A stretch of 64,000 nucleotides of DNA from assembly GCA_937138415.1 (NCBI GenBank), contig CAKZPA010000040.1, forward strand, positions 9 to 64,008, written 5' to 3'. Below the pieces are notes generated by a model, which saw only the letters and a list, made by a program, of their open reading frames with translations, made no database searches and was not told the origin of the DNA. The position numbers were made by a program, and so were the translations under genes. Within the stretch, counting starts at the first letter, position 1. Every line of letters starts with the position of its first letter. Source of the DNA: an uncultured Nitrospiraceae bacterium. GTDB lineage: Bacteria; Nitrospirota; Thermodesulfovibrionia; Thermodesulfovibrionales; SM23-35. Below, one piece after another: positions 27,900 to 36,277 of the stretch.

Positions 27900-28217
27900 A
27901 TGAACGCGATTGTCGAAAGTGGCGGTAAACAATACAGGGTCGCACCCGGCGACGTGATACGGGTGGAAAAGCTATCGTTCGAGGCCGGGACGGACGTGAC
28001 GTTGGATCGCGTCCTCCTGGTCACGAAGGACGGGACGGTAACAGTCGGTTCTCCCTATGTGGAGGGCGCGAAGGTCCTGGCGTCGGTCGAGAAGACGGGA
28101 AAGCTGCCGAAGGTTGTGATCCACAAGCAGAAACCTCGTAAGGTCTACCGGAAGACCAACGGCCACAGGCAACCGTTTACGTCGCTCAGAATCAAAGAAA
28201 TACTTTTTGGAGGATAG
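27900..28217 (+). CDS. rplU: 50S ribosomal protein L21
   Basis: [12 protein letters not shown] and GHRQPFT; SD GGAGGT. Confidence 0.98.
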
Positions 28218-28219
28218 GA

Positions 28220-28480
28220 ATGGCACATAAAAAAGGCGTCGGAAGTTCGAGAAATGGACGGGACAGCGAGTCGAAGCGACTCGGCGTCAAGAGATTCGGG
28301 GGGCAGATCGTGCGCGCGGGGAACATCCTCGTGAGGCAGCGGGGAACGAAATTTCACCCCGGCGCGAACGTCGGGAAGGGAGCCGACGACACCCTGTTCG
28401 CGCTCGTCGACGGGGTCGTCAATTTCGAGCGCAAGGACAGGGCACGTCTTCAGGTGAGCGTCTACCCGGTTTCGCAGTAG
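28220..28480 (+). CDS. rpmA: 50S ribosomal protein L27
   Basis: [16 protein letters not shown]. Confidence 0.99.
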
Positions 28481-28503
28481 GGAGCAGTTTTTCGAGATTC
28501 CAC

Positions 28504-28536
28504 AGAGGCGGGCGCCTGCCCGCCTCTTTTTGTTTT
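28504..28536 (+). terminator. Rho-independent terminator between rpmA and obgE
   Basis: AGAGGCGGGC-GCCT-GCCCGCCTCT followed by a T-rich tail. Confidence 0.85.
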
Positions 28537-28570
28537 CAGGAGCGTCGGACGCGATCCGAGGCGGTGAGCG

Positions 28571-29590
28571 ATGCATTTCGCTGACTATGTGACAATACGG
28601 GTTAAAGCCGGCGATGGCGGGAGAGGGTGTGTCAGTTTCCGGAGGGAAAAATACGTCCCGAGAGGCGGTCCCGACGGGGGCGACGGCGGGCGGGGCGGAC
28701 ACATTGTCATTAGGGCGACCAAAGAGCTCAATACGCTCATCGACCTTCGGTATCGGCGTGAGTATCGCGCGCTGAGAGGCGGGCACGGAAAGGGGAAGAA
28801 GATGCACGGCAGGGACGGCGAAGACCTTGTGATCGCGGTCCCTGTCGGGACGATCGTCAAAGACGCGGATTCGCAGGAAGTCCTCGCCGATCTCGATACG
28901 GACGGGAAAGAAGCTCTCATCGCGAGGGGTGGACGGGGCGGGCTCGGTAACGCTCACTTCACGACATCGGTGAAACAGGCGCCTCGGTTCGCTCAGCCGG
29001 GGGAGAAGGGGGAACAGCGGCGTCTCGTGCTCGAACTCAAACTTCTCGCCGATGTGGGGCTGATCGGCTTGCCGAACGCTGGCAAGTCCACGTTGTTGTC
29101 CGTCATTTCCGCCGCACGGCCGAAAACCGCCGCGTATCCGTTTACGACGCTTACGCCGGTCCTCGGCGTCGTAAAGGTGTCCGACTACAGGAGCTTCGTC
29201 GTTGCCGATATCCCGGGTCTCATCGAGGGGGCACACAGGGGGGCTGGTCTCGGATTTCAGTTCCTCCGCCACGTCGAGAGGACGGCGTTGCTCCTCCACC
29301 TCGTCGACGTTTCGGAATCGGCGCCGGGAGACCCTGTCGCTGACTTCGAGACGGTTCGCAGGGAGCTCGAACTCTACAGCGTCGAGCTCGCACGTAAACC
29401 CCATGTCGTGGCCTGCACGAAGATCGATATCGCCGGTACGGGCGAGAAGCGCGGGAGAATGGAGCGATATTGCCGGGAACGAGGCCTCGAGTGCTTTCCG
29501 GTGTCGTCGATAACCGGTGCAGGGATCCCCGAGCTGCTCGCGCACCTTGCGCGGAGGCTGAAGACGGCCACCCGGCTTCTGCCCCCGTGA
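28571..29590 (+). CDS. obgE: GTPase ObgE/CgtA
   Basis: Gly-rich Obg fold (GGPDGGDGG), GLPNAGKS, YPFTT, DIPGLIEGA, TKID. Confidence 0.98.
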   Translation: MHFADYVTIRVKAGDGGRGCVSFRREKYVPRGGPDGGDGGRGGHIVIRATKELNTLIDLRYRREYRALRGGHGKGKKMHGRDGEDLVIAVPVGTIVKDADSQEVLADLDTDGKEALIARGGRGGLGNAHFTTSVKQAPRFAQPGEKGEQRRLVLELKLLADVGLIGLPNAGKSTLLSVISAARPKTAAYPFTTLTPVLGVVKVSDYRSFVVADIPGLIEGAHRGAGLGFQFLRHVERTALLLHLVDVSESAPGDPVADFETVRRELELYSVELARKPHVVACTKIDIAGTGEKRGRMERYCRERGLECFPVSSITGAGIPELLAHLARRLKTATRLLPP

Positions 29591-29656
29591 AGCGTTCGCG
29601 CGCATACCGCTGAGGGGAGAATTTTTTTCCCTTGAGCTTCTGTGGTAATTTATATC

Positions 29657-31798
29657 GTGGCTGAGAACGCCGACAGAATTCCGCTCGATGCCCGATTGCT
29701 CGGTGATGCCATTATCGAGCTGAATATCTCGCGACGCAACGTCTCGATCTACCCCCGTGATCATCCTTCGGTCGACAAATCGCTCGGTCGCGCCTTCGCC
29801 TTCATGGAGAAGCTTTTTGAGTTGAGACCCGAAATAACGCTCGCTGTCGCGAAGGACACGCTCATCATCGATGATTACTATCTCGACAAGAAGAACCCGG
29901 TCTACCGCGAGTTCGCTCTCCATCTGAGCGACATGAGCATTTCTCACGTCACCTTCGTCACGGGTCTCGGCAAAGAAGAACTCTACGCATTCCACCGCTT
30001 CATTTCGGAAAAGAGAGACAGTGCCTCGGTCGCGGATCTCGAGAATTCTTTCAGGGAACTCAACCTCCTGCACATCAGGGCCGGTTTCATCGACTACGGT
30101 GCCTTTCGGTTCGTCGAGGGGGCATCCGAGACCGCTGCGAAGGACCCGTCTCTGTGGGAGCGGTACGTTTACGGGCTCCTCGAAGGGACCCTGCAGACGA
30201 ATGATATCGCGGACGGGATCGTTGAAATCCCCCCCGATATGCTCGCCCGGTTTGTCAACAGGATGGTCGTTGCGGAGCACAAAGAGGAGACCTACGATAG
30301 CGTCATCACGTCCTATGTGAGACGTTCGACCGAGAGCGCGTTTACGAGCAGGGATCTGCGGCGGCTCCTCGATTTCATCAACGGACTGAGACCGGAGTTG
30401 AAGAAGCAGTTCCTCACGTCGACGGTGAGGGTCGTTTCGAAAGACCTCGATGCAGCGTACAAGTCTCTTCGCGGGGTTTCCGTCGATGAGATCATCGAAC
30501 TGCTCGGTGTCATCAATGAGCAGAAGGTGGTCATCCCGGACGCGTTGAAAAACCTCCTCGACAAATTCTCTCTCCTCCCGTGGGAAGGCGTCGCGACTCC
30601 TCTCTTCGGCGGCGGTCTCCTCGTCGATGACATATTCCTGTCGCCCGATATCGTGAATCTTCTCAGGGAGGATCAGTTCGGCGCCTTCATCGACTCGACC
30701 TATCACAAGGAGATACAGAAGGTGATGGCGTTCAAGGCACCGAGGGTCGGTTCCGATACCGCCGCATGGGAGCAAGAATTCAGTGAAGAGGCGATAGAAA
30801 GGGATTTCAATCGGGCGGTTCTCGAAGTCCTCCGCTCGGATGTGATCAGCTCGGAAGAGTATCAGGAATTCGTCGATTTGATGAGGGAGCAGACCGAGCA
30901 GTTCGTGTGGACCGGGCAGTACGGCCGACTTATCGATATTGTCCGCCTCCTTTCAGAACACGAGAAGGACGAGCGGTTTTCCGAAAAAGCGAGCGAGGCA
31001 CTGGCGGAGTACTACTCGGATGCGTTCGTCGGCGGTCTAATCGAGTCGTTCAGGGTCGTGGGGAGGCAGGTACGGGAAGAGGCCTGGAAGCTCTGCGATT
31101 TCTACGGAGAACGGATCATCCCCAAGCTCATCGATGCGCTCATCGACGATTCATCGCAGGTCAACCGGCGTTTCTTCATCGGCATCCTCAAAGAGTTCGG
31201 AGACAGGATCATACCCGAGGTGCTGAGAAAGCTCGGTGACAGCAGGTGGTATGTGAAGAGGAACATGCTCTACATCCTCGGTGATTGCCAGACGCCCGAC
31301 ATCGTGCCCCACATCCGGCCGTACTGTCGGCATGAGAACCGCAAGGTGAGCATCGAAGCGATAAAGTGTCTCCTGAATGTCGGCGACAGGTATGGGATCG
31401 ACGCCCTCAAGGATTACATCCGTTCAGAATCTGGCGAAGCGGCCCGGGAATGGATTGCGCTCGCGGGGGCTTACCGCGTGAGGGAACTGGTCCCCGATCT
31501 CCTTGCCGTCCTGAGGAAGCGAGCGTTGACCGGCAGCGATCTCTACGAGAAGATTCCCGTGGTGAAGGCACTCGGGGAAATCGGCGACCCGCGCGCGCTC
31601 GATGCGCTTCGGGATCTCGTCCTCGGAAAGAGTATTTTGTTCCGGAACGTCGCCGAGAGAGTGCGGGAGGAGTTCTACCGCACGCTGAAACAGTATCCGC
31701 TCCCCTCCGTGAAAGATTTTATCGAGGCCGGCTTGAAATCGAAGAACAAGCTGATACGAGAAGAATCCGAGCGGCTGAGCACGAAGGATCAGGGGTAG
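29657..31798 (+). CDS. HEAT-repeat domain protein
   Basis: C-terminal HEAT/PBS-like repeats (LGDSRWYVKRNMLYILG, ALGEIGDPRAL); N-terminal YPRDHP domain. Start uncertain (GTG 29642 or 29657). Confidence 0.8.
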   Translation: MAENADRIPLDARLLGDAIIELNISRRNVSIYPRDHPSVDKSLGRAFAFMEKLFELRPEITLAVAKDTLIIDDYYLDKKNPVYREFALHLSDMSISHVTFVTGLGKEELYAFHRFISEKRDSASVADLENSFRELNLLHIRAGFIDYGAFRFVEGASETAAKDPSLWERYVYGLLEGTLQTNDIADGIVEIPPDMLARFVNRMVVAEHKEETYDSVITSYVRRSTESAFTSRDLRRLLDFINGLRPELKKQFLTSTVRVVSKDLDAAYKSLRGVSVDEIIELLGVINEQKVVIPDALKNLLDKFSLLPWEGVATPLFGGGLLVDDIFLSPDIVNLLREDQFGAFIDSTYHKEIQKVMAFKAPRVGSDTAAWEQEFSEEAIERDFNRAVLEVLRSDVISSEEYQEFVDLMREQTEQFVWTGQYGRLIDIVRLLSEHEKDERFSEKASEALAEYYSDAFVGGLIESFRVVGRQVREEAWKLCDFYGERIIPKLIDALIDDSSQVNRRFFIGILKEFGDRIIPEVLRKLGDSRWYVKRNMLYILGDCQTPDIVPHIRPYCRHENRKVSIEAIKCLLNVGDRYGIDALKDYIRSESGEAAREWIALAGAYRVRELVPDLLAVLRKRALTGSDLYEKIPVVKALGEIGDPRALDALRDLVLGKSILFRNVAERVREEFYRTLKQYPLPSVKDFIEAGLKSKNKLIREESERLSTKDQG

Positions 31799-31804
31799 CG
31801 GACG

Positions 31805-32914
31805 ATGGTCAGGTCGTTTCTGTCGATAGCGATGTCAGCGGTGTCGAACTGCTCGCTCTATTCGAAGGATCACGCGTCAGTTGAGGAACTCGGACGGAAG
31901 GCGTTCTCGATCCTGAACACGCTCCTCGAGGAATCGGAACGGCTCGAACTGATGATCGTCGGTGAAGATCTTATCGTCAACAAATCTCCGCTCAAGGATA
32001 TCGGCATTCAGGGGAAGAATTTGCTGAAACGTTTGCGCAAGAAGGGCATCACACGCGTCGATATCCTGCGCGGGGTATCCTATGCAGAAATGAAACAGTG
32101 GATCGCGGGCATCGCGTCCGTCCACGAGGAGATCAAAGGGTCCGCTCATATCAAGGTGGGTACCGTCGATGTGCGCATCGGCGGATTGAGGGTTGACGGC
32201 GAGTTTGTGGCCGATATGGCGGTACCCCCGGGACTCCCGTCGGTCCAGGTCGAAAAAGTGAAAGACCTCTACCAGGGCGTGTCGCCTTTCAAGAAATTGA
32301 ACATGACAGGGCTCGAAGACATTGTCGTGAACTTTATCCTCACGTTCAAGAGGGAAGTCAATATCCTGAAGCTCATCAGCCCCGTGAAGTCGTACAGTGA
32401 GTACACGTACACGCACGCAACGAACGTGACCGTGCTCTCCCTGTTCCAGGCCGAGTCGCTCGGCTTCAAGGACGATCTCTTGCGGGATATCGGGATCGCC
32501 GCTCTCCTGCACGATGTGGGGAAGCTCTTCATGTCGAAAGAACTCCTCGAAAAGAAGGTCGCGCTGGACGAGTGGGAACGGAGCGAAATACGGCTGCATC
32601 CCGTTTACGGTGCTAAATTCCTCGCGAAGATGGACGGCGTGCCCCGACTCGCGACGATCGTCGCGATGGAGCACCATCTCAGATACGACGGCACGGGGTA
32701 CCCCGTCTACGCGATGGGGAAGAAGCAGCACCTGTGCAGTCAGATTGTTGCCATCGCTGACTTTTTCGATGCGTTGCGGAGCCAGAGGCCGTATCGGAAA
32801 GCGCTCGAGGTCAAGGAGGTTCTCGCCCTCATCAAGAAGGATGCGGGGAGCGCGTTCAACCCGTTTCTCGTCGATAATTTTCTGCGTTCGATGCAGGCGG
32901 CCCTATCGGAGTGA
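31805..32914 (+). CDS. HD-GYP domain phosphodiesterase
   Basis: HATNV, LLHDVGK, HPVYG, HHLRYDGTGYP and IADFFDAL..RPYRK motifs. Confidence 0.92.
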   Translation: MVRSFLSIAMSAVSNCSLYSKDHASVEELGRKAFSILNTLLEESERLELMIVGEDLIVNKSPLKDIGIQGKNLLKRLRKKGITRVDILRGVSYAEMKQWIAGIASVHEEIKGSAHIKVGTVDVRIGGLRVDGEFVADMAVPPGLPSVQVEKVKDLYQGVSPFKKLNMTGLEDIVVNFILTFKREVNILKLISPVKSYSEYTYTHATNVTVLSLFQAESLGFKDDLLRDIGIAALLHDVGKLFMSKELLEKKVALDEWERSEIRLHPVYGAKFLAKMDGVPRLATIVAMEHHLRYDGTGYPVYAMGKKQHLCSQIVAIADFFDALRSQRPYRKALEVKEVLALIKKDAGSAFNPFLVDNFLRSMQAALSE

Positions 32915-33246
32915 AGGGAATGGCGAAGAAATGCGGTGATTCCGCCGTTCCCATTCCGAGCAGGGAAACGGTGAGACAGAAGATCGTATCCCTCCTCGAG
33001 GGAGGACGCCTCACCGCTCTTGAACTCTCTCTCGAATGCGGTATCCCGGAACGTGATGTGTTCGACCACCTCGGACATATCCAGAAGAGCATCGGCAGAT
33101 CCGGTCAGTCTCTCGTGGTAACTCCTGCGGCGTGCAGGAGGTGCCATTTCGTTTTTCGGAAGCGGGAACGGCTGAAGAAACCGGGACGATGCCCTGTCTG
33201 CCGGAGCGAAACGATCCGCGACCCCGTCTTTTCGATCAAAAAATAA
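32911..33246 (+). CDS. Small HTH + zinc-ribbon protein (predicted regulator)
   Basis: TVRQKI...LTALELS...HLGHI, then CRRC and CPVC. Start may be a few codons downstream. Confidence 0.8.
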   Translation: MKGMAKKCGDSAVPIPSRETVRQKIVSLLEGGRLTALELSLECGIPERDVFDHLGHIQKSIGRSGQSLVVTPAACRRCHFVFRKRERLKKPGRCPVCRSETIRDPVFSIKK

Positions 33247-34450
33247 CCTGCAGAACCTCGTCTATCTCTCTGAGTGCGTTGATGATGCTGCGCGCTTCGT
33301 GAGGGTGAAGAGACGCCGCGTTCACCGAGGAAATGACGTTCACGACGCCGTCGAATCCGTCGCGGACGCGGAGATCGTTGTCCATGTGTCGGGCGAAGGC
33401 ATGCCGGATGGCATCTGCCATGCCGTGCTCCCGTGTGTACCGTTTCCCTGCCCGACGGCGGATGCGACCGACCAGTCTCCTGCAGTTCCTCAGTCTCTGT
33501 ACCGCGAGATCCATCAGAGCGTCATCGTAGTCCATCTTTTCCCGGTAGTGGCCGTCGATGAGGAAGAAACGCACGTCCCGGTTATCGTACCCCTTCGCGC
33601 AGAGAGTGTCCGTGTAGATCACGTTCCCCTCGCTCTTCGACATCTTTTCCCCGCGGACGAAGAGGTGGTTGCAGTGCAGCCAGTATTTCGCCATAGGAGC
33701 CCCCCGAACGGACTCGAGGATCGCTTTCGTATAGTCGTGGTGCCGGTAGAGATTGTCGATGCCCCCGCAGTAGATCGAGAGCGTTTCATCGAAGAAGTGA
33801 CTGATCATGCTCGCATCCTGGATATTCCACGCCGGTCGTCCTCTCCCGATCTCGGTGTCCCAGAAACAGGGATCGCCAGGCTTGTAGCCGTGCCAGAGGA
33901 TAAAGTCTCCCCGATTCCACTGAACGCCCGGGTATGTGTCGCGGTGGAAACGCCTCTTCTTGCGCGGCCAGCGCGACATGTCGAGTCCGAAGAGCCTGCC
34001 GAAATCCGGAAACGTGAGAGGATCGAAATAGGCGTTTCCGCCGTGCCAATAGGCATAGCCTTTTTGAACGAGCGCGCGCGTGAGGCGCGCCGCGTCTTCG
34101 ACGTGTTCCGACGCCCGCGGCAAAAAATCCGGCTCCTTCATTCTGAGGAAGTTCATCTCCCGGAGGAAGTCTTCGATGTTCCTCGACGTGAGTTGAAGGA
34201 GGGTCATCTTCTTCCTCTCGGCTTCGGCAATCGCCTTGTCTTCCACATCGGTGAGACTCATTCCCCTCTGAACGCGGTAACCCGCATACATGAGGTAGCG
34301 CACGAGGATATCCTCGAACAGGAACGTTCTGAAATTGCCGATATGGGCTCTTTGATACACGGAGGGACCGCACGTGAATACGGTGACCATGTCTCTCCGC
34401 ACGGGAGAGAACGGTTCCATGTGTCTGCCGAGGGTGTTGAACAGGTGCAT
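33236..34450 (-). CDS. Cysteinyl-tRNA synthetase-like class I ligase (atypical paralog)
   Basis: FTCGPSVY, HIGN, DFILW, GRPAW and KMSKS are present. WHIEC reads WNIQD and HHENE reads HHDYT; only 404 aa. Confidence 0.88.
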   Translation of the reverse strand: MHLFNTLGRHMEPFSPVRRDMVTVFTCGPSVYQRAHIGNFRTFLFEDILVRYLMYAGYRVQRGMSLTDVEDKAIAEAERKKMTLLQLTSRNIEDFLREMNFLRMKEPDFLPRASEHVEDAARLTRALVQKGYAYWHGGNAYFDPLTFPDFGRLFGLDMSRWPRKKRRFHRDTYPGVQWNRGDFILWHGYKPGDPCFWDTEIGRGRPAWNIQDASMISHFFDETLSIYCGGIDNLYRHHDYTKAILESVRGAPMAKYWLHCNHLFVRGEKMSKSEGNVIYTDTLCAKGYDNRDVRFFLIDGHYREKMDYDDALMDLAVQRLRNCRRLVGRIRRRAGKRYTREHGMADAIRHAFARHMDNDLRVRDGFDGVVNVISSVNAASLHPHEARSIINALREIDEVLQVIF

Positions 34451-34573
34451 CGGTTAAGGATGCCCGGGACTGCGCAGTGCGGCCGCAAACCTGGCGGCAT
34501 TCATTTTATCACAATCGAGGGGGTTGGGGGTTCTCCTGTTTCGCTTCTGTTTTCTGTATCATATACGTGACCG

Positions 34574-35032
34574 ATGGCGACCGACAAAGTGAAGAGTCTC
34601 GTCGACGAGGGAAAAAGCGCGCTCGGTCGGGGAGACACGCTGACGGCGCTCTCCCTCTTTGAAAAAGCGGCAGAGACCCCGGGTGATCTCTCGGCGCGCT
34701 CCTTTCTCGCGTATTGCATGGCGAAGGAGCGCGGACTCGCGGCGCGCGGGATCGCAGTGTGCAGGGAATGTCTCGAGAGGGAACCCGATAATGCTCTTCA
34801 CTACCTCAACCTCGGAAGGATTTATCTGATCATGAGGAAGCGCGGAGAGGCGATCGCGGTCTTCAGGGAAGGTTTGAAGCGCGAACGAAATGAGGATATC
34901 GTTGCCGAACTGAACCGGCTCGGCGTGAGGAGCGCACCTGTTCTCCGCTTTCTGAGCAGGAACAATCCGATCAACAAATATCTCGGCATTCTCCTCACGA
35001 TGCTGAAGATTCGCTCGTCGTCCTGCCGTTGA
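34574..35032 (+). CDS. Tetratricopeptide repeat protein
   Basis: TPR-like helices (EPDNALHYLNLGRIY). Confidence 0.82.
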   Translation: MATDKVKSLVDEGKSALGRGDTLTALSLFEKAAETPGDLSARSFLAYCMAKERGLAARGIAVCRECLEREPDNALHYLNLGRIYLIMRKRGEAIAVFREGLKRERNEDIVAELNRLGVRSAPVLRFLSRNNPINKYLGILLTMLKIRSSSCR

Positions 35033-35065: not shown

Positions 35066-36277
35066 ATGGTGAAGCCGGAAGAACAGCTTGCAATCATCAA
35101 GCGGGGTGCCGTGGAGATCATCGTCGAGGAAGATCTCCTCGGAAAGATCGAGAAGTCGTATCGCGACGGCAGACCGCTCAGGATCAAAGCGGGATTCGAT
35201 CCGACCGCGCCCGACATCCATCTCGGCCACACCGTGCTCCTCGAGAAGATGCGGCAATTCCAGGAACTCGGACACGAGGTGATCTTCCTCATCGGTGATT
35301 TTACGGGTATGATCGGCGATCCGAGCGGGAAGAGCGAGATGCGGAAACCGCTCACGCGCGAGGAAGTGATCGAGAACGCGAAGACGTACCGTGTGCAGAT
35401 CGCGAAGATTCTCGATCCCGAGAGGACGAGGGTTGCGTTCAACTCGGAGTGGATGGAGACGATGACCGCATCGGAGATGATCCGGCTCGCGAGCAGGTAC
35501 ACCGTCGCGCGCATGTTGGAACGCGAGGATTTCAGAACGCGTTGGGTGAACCAAAACCCTATCGGTATCCACGAATTCCTCTATCCATTGATACAGGGGT
35601 ACGACTCCGTGGCGTTGCATGCCGATGTCGAATTGGGCGGGACAGATCAGAAATTCAACCTTATGGTCGGTCGGGAACTCCAGAGAGAGTACGGACAGGA
35701 AGCGCAGTGCATCGTCCTCATGCCTCTCCTCGAGGGTCTGGACGGCGTCAAGAAGATGAGCAAGAGCCTCGGCAATTACATAGGCATCACCGAGCCCCCG
35801 TCCGAAATGTTCGGAAAGATCATGTCGATCAACGATGACCTGATGCTCAGGTACTACGAACTGCTGAGCCACATTTCGCTCGAGGAGTTCGAGACGCTCA
35901 AAAAGGGGCTGGGCGACGGGACGGTCCATCCTAAAGCGGCGAAGGAGACCCTCGCGTTCGAGATCGTGGAGCGATACTGGGGGAGGGACGAGGCGGTGCG
36001 TGCCAGAAACGAGTTCGAGCACGTCTTCCGCGGAAAAGGGCTCCCCGATCACGTCCCGACGGTCTCGCTCCGATGGGAAGAAAAGGAAATGTGGGTACCG
36101 AAGATCATGAAGCTCTCCGGTCTCACGGCGAGCACAGGTGAAGCCCTCAGATTGATCAGACAGGGCGGGGTGACGGTGAACGAGAAGAAGATCGAGGACC
36201 CGGACACCGCGCTGCCGGCGGGCCGCTACCTCTTCAAGGTCGGAAAGAGAAAATTTCTCTCGGTGCAGGCGGTCTAG
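35066..36277 (+). CDS. tyrS: Tyrosine--tRNA ligase
   Basis: [35 protein letters not shown]-terminal S4-like domain. Confidence 0.98.

Follow-up and report, generated by a model that had tools for sequence, protein, structure and literature searches.

Several aminoacyl-tRNA synthetase (aaRS) paralogs have left translation, among them MshC, Glu-Q-RS, HisZ and the cyclodipeptide synthases, and each opened new biochemistry. Glu-Q-RS is a truncated GluRS paralog that modifies tRNA-Asp, a class-I enzyme that has kept its adenylation chemistry and has no anticodon domain. Here we describe a paralog of cysteinyl-tRNA synthetase (CysRS) encoded at positions 33236..34450, on the reverse strand, of a 64,000-nucleotide stretch (hereafter the window) of contig CAKZPA010000040.1 from an uncultured Nitrospiraceae bacterium (assembly GCA_937138415.1). 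The paralog belongs to an undescribed, monophyletic family derived from CysRS, defined below as the WNxQD / RHHDY[T/N] family. The explanation that we favour, tentatively, and that may well be right, is that it is an MshC-like, tRNA-independent and ATP-dependent ligase, probably activating cysteine, that feeds an exported or stress-related small molecule.

Several described systems bear on this family. In the sections of PMC9736012 consulted, the zinc of MshC is held by C43, C231, H256 and the thiol of the substrate, and the substrate alpha-amino group is contacted by the G44 carbonyl, T46 and T83. CysRS* of Desulfobacterales has no anticodon-binding domain (ABD), is encoded in a selC*-selB*-cysS* operon and serves a tRNA-Cys(UCA) with an A1:U72 pair, which is recognised by the PTVS motif of its connective peptide 1 (CP1), according to the parts used here of Mukai et al. 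(2017, PMC5389517). The Zur-regulated CysRS paralogs of beta- and gamma-proteobacteria keep their zinc-binding residues and occur in clusters with Zur, COG0523 and Znu, as set out in an excerpt of Haas et al. (2009, PMC2770081). Glu-Q-RS (YadB) is named in Table 1 of PMC9437257; in the passages of that source returned by a term search the only CysRS paralogs listed were MshC and CysRS*, and those of PMC2922099 returned in the same way discussed MshC alone. No description of the family reported here was found in the literature searched.

A conserved family of short CysRS paralogs

The paralog gene is an intact ATG-to-stop open reading frame (ORF) of 404 aa with a verified start and stop, and the start is supported by an 18-sequence family alignment in which the homologues align from residue 1. 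The gene and its active-site features are as follows.

33236..34450, reverse strand: CysRS-derived paralog gene, with a Rossmann catalytic domain, CP1 domain, stem-contact fold and helical bundle, and no anticodon-binding domain
34370..34372, reverse strand: Cys27, the position of zinc ligand C28 in E. coli CysRS and of C43 in MshC (MshC ligands from the consulted part of PMC9736012), placed by alignment and present in 120/120 homologues
34334..34345, reverse strand: HIGN, the class-I 'HIGH' ATP motif, residues 36-39, from the translation, with H36, G38 and N39 in 120/120 homologues
33926..33970, reverse strand: family-specific basic, aromatic CP1 insert WPRKKRRFHRDTYPG, residues 161-175, from the alignment and homologue conservation, with the role of CP1 after the consulted part of PMC5389517
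33815..33829, reverse strand: WNIQD, residues 208-212, in place of WHIEC, with Asp212 at the position of zinc ligand C209, from the alignment
33728..33745, reverse strand: RHHDYT, residues 236-241, in place of PHHENE, with H237 at the position of zinc ligand H234, from the alignment
33632..33646, reverse strand: KMSKS, the ATP/transition-state loop, residues 269-273, from the translation, in 120/120 homologues

The protein matched the Pfam CysRS catalytic domain (PF01406) over residues 14-316 with 244.8 bits, and the NCBIfam cysS model (TIGR00435) with 298.1 bits, which does not reach the cut-off of 340. The latter match covered model positions 1-401 of 466, so that the C-terminal anticodon-binding part was absent. 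The score against the MshC model (TIGR03447) was 167 bits, also short of its cut-off (485.1). The best solved relative was the CysRS structure 8qhp (E = 7.6e-67), followed by E. coli CysRS 1li5 (E = 1.5e-56; query 2-400 against chain residues 3-391 of 461) and MshC (E = 1e-40). An AlphaFold2 model built from the 18-sequence alignment was confident (mean predicted local distance difference test score, pLDDT, 92.2; predicted template modelling score 0.92), with pLDDT below 50 in residues 174-177 alone, at the tip of the CP1 insert. Foldseek analysis of this model gave template modelling (TM) scores of 0.86-0.89 for CysRS structures (best 8qhp, 0.89; tRNA complex 1u0b, 0.88) and 0.83-0.85 for MshC. 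The first-pass annotation of this DNA had described a 404-aa CysRS-type protein with HIGN and KMSKS, C209 replaced by Asp, E238 by Thr, a basic insert and no anticodon domain. Every listed detail was seen in the alignment with E. coli CysRS, and the absence of the domain was borne out by the ends of the TIGR00435 match (401/466) and of the E. coli alignment (391/461).

Compared with E. coli CysRS, six pocket positions are changed (C209D, E238T, H206N, E208Q, P233R and N237Y) and H234 is kept. The insert at residues 161-175 stands in for a shorter canonical CP1 segment and is 4-5 residues longer; its pattern is WPxKKxRFHKDTYPG. These features were compared in the 120 best database homologues, which are ~405 aa long and 58-65% identical to the paralog, and among which the window's own protein is counted. 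All 120 keep C27, H36, G38, N39, W208, N209, D212, R236, H237, H238, D239, Y240 and KMSKS, together with the insert residues W161, P162, R167, H169, D171, T172, Y173 and G175. Gln211 was present in 116/120, and position 241 was Thr in 113, Ser in 6 and Ile in 1. The HxGN motif is not diagnostic, as most canonical CysRS representatives carry it. We therefore define the family as proteins of ~405 aa with C27, W-N-x-Q-D, R-H-H-D-Y-[T/N/S], a WP..K.RF.KDTYPG insert and no anticodon domain that form a single clade, all of which hold for the paralog.

The first-pass annotation had allowed that the substitutions might reflect decay. The paralog falls below the cysS cut-off and has one domain missing, as a functionless cysS duplicate might; it also has an intact ORF, a confident structural model and catalytic and family residues that are invariant in 120/120 homologues at ~60% identity. 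A peptide-pattern search of species-representative genomes confirmed at least 592 of at least 599 matched stretches as relatives, the best 80 of which all came from metagenome-assembled genomes (MAGs) labelled chiefly Nitrospirota or Thermodesulfobacteriota. Because the substitutions are strictly conserved, the paralog is not a product of decay, and this explanation is effectively refuted.

The extent of the family was examined with further searches. In an exhaustive search at the level of 50%-identity representatives the matches soon turned into canonical CysRS, and the combination of WNxQD, RHHDY[T/N] and the insert marked the family. A metagenome scan using divergent members returned mainly generic class-I matches, with family members at 6/80 loci, and a search of the ESM Atlas returned CysRS- and MshC-type clusters only. 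The phylogeny of WNIQD-type homologues proposed in the first-pass annotation was built in two ways, both unrooted and with MshC outside the row set. A FastTree analysis of 138 rows, restricted to lengths of 380-620 aa, separated the family from the other rows by a single branch. In a quick IQ-TREE analysis of 50 rows, in which the degenerate P0130 and P0174 were dropped and 22 canonical rows retained, the family was one clade with 100% support in the Shimodaira-Hasegawa-like approximate likelihood ratio test. Its sister was P0136, a short protein with canonical ligands (96%), and all short forms lacking the anticodon domain, including the Micrarchaeota proteins P0139, P0148 and P0173, clustered apart from the full-length enzymes (98%). 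The short relatives with canonical ligands pass the cysS cut-off (P0136, 369.5 bits; P0139, 392.8 bits; P0148, 354 bits). A cautious reading of the tree is that domain loss preceded the remodelling of the pocket.

We also examined whether family members accompany a canonical enzyme. In the window's genome (2.11 Mb; marker completeness 100%) a separate contig carries a canonical cysS that retains WHIEC and PHHENE, and the two copies matched PF01406 with 463.6 bits (canonical) and 245.4 bits (paralog). The family profile exceeded 600 bits in 7/201 sampled genomes of the phylum, with a next-best score of ~294 bits; all seven carriers belong to the order of the window, and a canonical CysRS match was present in every one of them. 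When 121 genomes of the order were sampled the paralog was found in 14, and was not found in the sole genome sampled from the same genus (100% complete). The five Thermodesulfobacteriota carriers tested all had both a cysS (561-577 bits) and a paralog (278-323 bits), and the 1.2-Mb Micrarchaeota genome that encodes P0173 had a canonical copy (413 bits) beside P0173 (228 bits). A family member is thus never the sole CysRS in the genomes checked. This confirms the earlier proposal that the gene is a paralog beside a canonical cysS and disposes of the contrary case that it is the only one. The paralog is an accessory, horizontally mobile function, and its patchy distribution suggests horizontal transfer.

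Most public records of the family (P0002-P0120) bear the JGI name 'cysteinyl-tRNA synthetase' or the NCBI name 'class I tRNA ligase family protein'. The first of these names is probably wrong for the family. Annotation pipelines should not label its genes cysS, and counting its members as CysRS could hide a true loss of cysS or inflate aaRS copy numbers in metabolic reconstructions based on MAGs.

The amino-acid pocket and its substrate

The canonical four-ligand zinc site (Cys28, Cys/Asp209, His234 and Glu238) is not complete in the family, in which the C28 and H234 equivalents are kept and the position of E238 is Thr or Asn; Glu occupies that position in 128/133 non-family rows. The first-pass annotation took the rebuilt pocket to mean a substrate other than cysteine. 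An alternative of this kind, in which the pocket selects a non-cysteine amino acid (cysteine sulfinate, cysteate, S-sulfocysteine, Asp, phosphoserine or selenocysteine) for ligation to a non-tRNA acceptor, draws on the six pocket-lining positions that are changed and fixed (H206N, E208Q, C209D, P233R, N237Y and E238T). The net loss of two acidic side chains and the gain of an Arg (R236, 120/120) would favour a more anionic substrate, and the hosts are sulfur-cycling and syntrophic anaerobes by their MAG labels.

Three lines of evidence weaken this interpretation. The first concerns Asp at the C209 position. P0210, a full-length enzyme with Asp at this position, passes the cysS cut-off (457.7 bits), and the motif PGWHIED, with the same Asp, was found in 17/80 of its relatives, from Thermoplasmata, Bathyarchaeia, Nitrososphaerales, Saccharibacteria and other lineages. 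Loci with the pattern PGWHIED...PHHE[A/S]E were L108, L109, L112-L115, L117, L118, L120, L123, L124, L127, L128, L139, L140, L144 and L155. In 5/5 genomes tested the Asp209 enzyme was the only strong PF01406 match (379-416 bits; all others below 40). Asp209 enzymes are therefore sole CysRS copies, and a Cys/Asp/His/Glu site serves as that of a housekeeping CysRS.

The second line is the comparison with MshC. In the alignment used, M. smegmatis MshC reads GWHVEC...FPHHEYS, with Tyr at the N237 position and Ser at the E238 position, yet MshC is specific for cysteine. Among the 133 non-family rows Tyr240 occurred only in P0130 and Ser/Thr241 only in P0173 and P0174. These three proteins belong to an extended family, and none of the remaining 130 rows had Tyr240 or Ser/Thr241; neither did any of the 80 loci of the P0210-relative set. 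The third line is the retention of the rest of the site: the paralog keeps C27, H237 and Trp208 together with the alpha-amino contacts G28, S30 and T67, and these three contacts do not vary among the 18 aligned family sequences. In addition, no pathway gene for an alternative substrate was linked to the family loci.

Cysteine probably remains the most economical substrate, because Asp209 occurs in sole CysRS enzymes, MshC works with three protein ligands and a Ser, and G28, S30 and T67 are invariant. Judged from these residues, the pocket resembles a modified cysteine site whose second-substrate side is of MshC type, and does not resemble a site for an unrelated amino acid; an anionic analogue of cysteine may also fit, given the family-specific N209, Q211 and R236. 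Of the claim of a rebuilt pocket, then, the six substitutions are real and strictly conserved, and the non-cysteine substrate that they were held to imply is weakened. We regard a non-cysteine substrate as distinctly unlikely.

The acceptor, the gene neighbourhood and the product

To examine the acceptor we searched for partner tRNAs. The window's genome encodes 46 tRNAs and a tmRNA, among them one ordinary tRNA-Cys(GCA) with U73 and one tRNA-Sec with G73, and has one selB above the cut-off; no second tRNA-Cys, selC* or selB* was found in it. Genomic context was counted over 92 non-redundant family loci, including the window. A Cys or Sec tRNA was present in 0/92 of these and any tRNA in 9/92. 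selB was found in 117/121 genomes of the order, so the selenocysteine trait does not discriminate carriers. Three genomes of the window's family (G230, G239 and G247) had two selB-type matches above the cut-off each; two of them carry the paralog, without MATE, and the third does not. The second matches are possibly the selB* of Mukai et al. (2017). No Rfam leader (riboswitch or T-box) matched at the gathering score in 10 operon loci. On the available sequence evidence a non-tRNA acceptor appears the best-supported reading, because the protein stops short of an anticodon domain, carries another sequence in place of the CP1 acceptor-stem motif, has no linked tRNA and shares HH[D/E]Y[S/T] with MshC alone.

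The same evidence bears on the alternative that the paralog is a minimal CysRS, blind to the anticodon, whose basic CP1 insert contacts the acceptor stem and so lets it charge tRNA-Cys, tRNA-Sec or some other tRNA, perhaps as a stress-resistant or zinc-sparing backup in which an oxidisable Cys thiolate ligand is replaced by Asp. In its favour, nothing is missing from the catalytic core, CysRS structures are the closest in fold (among them the tRNA complex 1u0b, TM 0.88), and the nearest relatives (P0136, P0139 and P0148) are short, canonical-ligand proteins above the cysS cut-off. In the portion of PMC5389517 consulted, a tRNA is the substrate both of CysRS*, which has no ABD, and of an engineered delta-ABD/PTVS variant; Zur-regulated CysRS paralogs exist (PMC2770081, in excerpt), and oxidative-stress and metal-transport neighbours are frequent. 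This alternative does not account for the score of 298 bits against a cysS cut-off of 340, the lack of an extra tRNA-Cys, selC* or selB* in the window's genome, or the lack of a linked tRNA in the 92 loci. The CP1 insert is wholly unlike PTVS, the Zur-linked paralogs keep their zinc ligands in the text of PMC2770081 that we used, HH[D/E]Y[S/T] was seen in no tRNA-charging CysRS row examined, and a coupling to MATE has no obvious place in a backup synthetase. We consider tRNA charging unlikely, although it keeps a substantial share of our judgement.

The neighbourhood survey called for in the first-pass annotation revealed a recurrent transporter and, as noted above, no pathway gene for another substrate. 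A multidrug and toxic compound extrusion (MATE) transporter of ~457 aa lies upstream on the same strand in 58/92 loci, immediately upstream in 57/92, with a median gap to the paralog of 64 nt (44/60 gaps below 100 nt). The assignment rests on PF01554 and on TIGR00797 (235 bits, above the cut-off); the best specific model was of YeeO type, with a score far below its cut-off. By the NCBI phylum label of the MAG, the transporter is upstream in 38/48 Nitrospirota, 12/28 Thermodesulfobacteriota, 3/5 Myxococcota, 4/5 unknown, 0/4 Pseudomonadota and 1/1 Chloroflexota loci, and in 0/1 for the window itself. In the 121-genome sample of the order, whose related genomes are not independent of one another, 10 genomes had both genes, 4 (including the window's genome) the paralog only, 3 MATE only and 104 neither. 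The MATE-only genomes were 89-91% complete, and in 2 of the 10 genomes with both the genes were on different contigs.

Other efflux and stress genes were seen near family members and their relatives. In a Micrarchaeota MAG (L193:4248-9840, forward strand) a DrrA-like ABC ATPase and an ABC-2 permease are followed, with no gap, by the paralog P0173 and then by a P-type cation ATPase; P0173 (405 aa) is an intermediate paralog with WNxQC and NHHENT. One divergent metagenome member follows a CNNM/CorC efflux protein and another lies 250 nt after NhaA. A Bcp-type peroxiredoxin is directly upstream in 2 metagenome loci. Among the 92 loci, neighbours included thioredoxin-2 in 8, Fe/Mn superoxide dismutase in 5, rubrerythrin in 2 and a CoA-binding protein in 7, and a heavy-metal P-type ATPase (HMA and E1-E2 domains) was present in 7 of the first 20 loci.

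The pairing with efflux genes also suits a resistance or immunity module, in which a toxic analogue of cysteine, or a CysRS-directed antibiotic that mimics an aminoacyl-adenylate, would be bound or modified by the paralog and driven out by the neighbouring transporter. Pairing with three unrelated efflux families (MATE, DrrAB-like ABC-2 and CNNM/CorC) and the patchy distribution are consistent with such a module, as is its presence in a 1.2-Mb Micrarchaeota genome, where a biosynthetic luxury would seem less likely. Extra aaRS copies are a known self-resistance device, but the known resistance copies are full, functional synthetases; the paralog has no anticodon domain and an altered pocket, and the window's genome has no pump partner. 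We know of no CysRS inhibitor of the aminoacyl-adenylate-mimic kind. This explanation is very improbable.

For the favoured explanation, an MshC-like ligase, we propose the following course. The paralog keeps the full adenylate-forming machinery (HIGN, GGxD and KMSKS) and a putative three-residue metal site of Cys27, Asp212 and His237. L-cysteine or a very close analogue would be activated with ATP as an aminoacyl-adenylate, and the aminoacyl group would then pass to a small, probably anionic, non-tRNA nucleophile, as it does in mycothiol synthesis by MshC. Binding of the acceptor would fall to the basic CP1 insert and the MshC-like HHDY[T/N] patch. The product, or conjugates made with it, would probably be exported or used in the handling of thiol, oxidative or metal stress, because the gene immediately upstream usually encodes an efflux pump, of the MATE type in bacteria and of the ABC-2 type in the Micrarchaeota relative. 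A more specific version is that a CysRS-derived enzyme and an efflux pump, spread horizontally among anaerobic Nitrospirota, Thermodesulfobacteriota and DPANN archaea, make an exported cysteinyl (or thio- or seleno-amino-acyl) conjugate at a Cys/Asp/His metal centre by tRNA-independent amide or ester formation; candidates for the product are a low-molecular-weight thiol of a new type, a metallophore and a conjugate formed in detoxification. This version is possible, though we lean against it in so specific a form. The overall interpretation in the first-pass annotation holds for a paralog that is neither MshC nor cysS by curated cut-offs, and a non-tRNA acceptor appears best supported; the case for a substrate other than cysteine is weakened.

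Several observations weigh against an MshC-like ligase. The paralog is nearer CysRS than MshC (298 vs 167 bits; TM 0.89 vs 0.85), and the family nests among short canonical-ligand forms that carry the name cysteine--tRNA ligase in their source records. An enzyme without an anticodon domain need not be independent of tRNA: in the part of Mukai et al. (2017, PMC5389517) consulted, a CysRS engineered to lack its ABD charges a tRNA. Clamping an acceptor stem is just as plausible a role for the basic insert. The shared HH[D/E]Y[S/T] may be convergence, and no role for Y259 or S260 of MshC was found in the sections of PMC9736012 that we used. A divergent metagenome member (L196:6001-7218, forward strand) reads PCWNTRI...RHHEYT, keeping the insert and losing Asp212 and Gln211; it may represent a metal-free sub-branch or a decaying copy. 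With respect to context, 34/92 loci have no MATE upstream. Because the window's genome has the paralog and no MATE homologue (tblastn, E <= 1e-5), the pump is a frequent but dispensable companion. The thiol and oxidative-stress theme among the neighbours consists of counts without a background rate for comparison, and no conserved biosynthetic partner was found among the family loci. The PIG-L/LmbE deacetylase (PF02585) did not track the paralog, being over the cut-off in 9/14 carriers and 39/107 non-carriers, and had no match in the window's genome. No family-specific domain fusions were found; the only fusions were of cysteine synthase to CysRS at 30-32% identity, which is weak evidence. The acceptor, the product and the second half-reaction are steps that we infer.

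The fusions just mentioned (L024:5095-7377, forward strand; P0133, P0170, P0276 and P0277) are proteins of 760-789 aa with a pyridoxal-phosphate-dependent cysteine synthase (PALP domain) N-terminal to a CysRS that has WHIQC and PHHENE, and the KMSKS loop of the L024 fusion looks degenerate. Many canonical CysRS matches in the window's order lie in open frames of ~705-750 aa, which may be the same cysteine synthase fusion.

The genes around the paralog in the window were also recorded.

32911..33246, forward strand: PF0610-like winged-helix and zinc-ribbon protein, 111 aa, convergent, overlapping the 3' end of the paralog by 11 nt
34574-35032, forward strand: TPR-like protein, 152 aa, divergent, upstream of the paralog
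35066-36277, forward strand: putative tyrS (tyrosyl-tRNA synthetase), 403 aa, after the TPR gene, from the translation alone

The PF0610-like cluster, of which the member at L014:8942-9274 matches PF21476 and PF23470, is downstream and convergent in 13/92 loci and probably reflects lineage synteny. Other loci do not preserve the adjacency of the paralog and tyrS, both genes of class-I synthetase type, and an HD-domain protein is also among the window neighbours. A promoter scan upstream of the paralog gave one sigma-70-like site (34587-34558, reverse strand), with no excess over shuffled sequence. Two antisense shadow ORFs were seen, both typical of GC-rich coding DNA: one of 423 aa (33299-34570, forward strand) that lies opposite the paralog and exceeds the real gene in length, and one of 876 aa (28145-30775, reverse strand) opposite obg and the next gene.

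Comparison with known systems

The family is large (at least 592 relatives), strictly conserved and genetically coupled to export, and if it does make a cysteine conjugate, the uncultured sulfur-cycling and syntrophic hosts would be expected to use a metabolite for handling thiols or metals that is new to science. Of the systems with which it can be compared, the Zur-regulated CysRS paralogs are extra CysRS copies tied to zinc stress, whereas the present family has altered ligands; no COG0523, Znu or Zur protein was among the annotated recurrent neighbour clusters of the family. Glu-Q-RS derives from GluRS and not from CysRS, and it still acts on a tRNA, whereas nothing here points to a tRNA target. 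CysRS*, like the paralog, is without the anticodon-binding domain. Unlike CysRS*, the paralog has no linked tRNA, and selC* and a second selB are both missing from the genome that encodes it; its insert is long and basic and is not PTVS. The identification of the paralog as CysRS* was rejected, since the partner tRNA and selB* were not found.

Canonical CysRS (TIGR00435; 1li5/1u0b and 8qhp) shares with the paralog the fold, HxGN and KMSKS, Cys27, His237, Trp208, the alpha-amino contacts and the helical bundle. Unlike canonical CysRS, the paralog has no anticodon domain, has a basic insert in place of the CP1 acceptor-stem segment, reads WNxQD for WHxEC and RHHDY[T/N] for PHHENE, scores below the cut-off and is always a second copy.

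The relation to MshC was judged from model scores and one alignment. In the search for MshC sequences for the tree, the short actinobacterial matches proved to be CysRS, and 5 actinobacterial genomes gave no match above the MshC cut-off; the trees, with CysRS-type rows and without MshC, suggest an origin of the family separate from MshC, among the short CysRS forms. Unlike MshC, the paralog has Asp212 and not a Cys (C231) as its third ligand, so that 2/3 zinc ligands are kept; it also has changes at H206 and E208, its own CP1 insert, Arg236, hosts outside Actinomycetota and no requirement for a PIG-L deacetylase. A mycothiol- or bacillithiol-like pathway through such a deacetylase was rejected, as it did not co-occur with the paralog. 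Like MshC (L-cysteine:GlcN-Ins ligase of mycothiol synthesis; TIGR03447; 3c8z and 8hfm), the paralog is a protein of ~400-415 aa with HHDYT for HHEYS and the logic of a metal site with three protein ligands; the missing anticodon domain was observed in the paralog and is taken from the first-pass annotation for MshC. If the favoured explanation is correct, the family would be the second natural CysRS descendant, after MshC, to have become a small-molecule ligase, and would have arrived at the MshC solution independently, by convergence.

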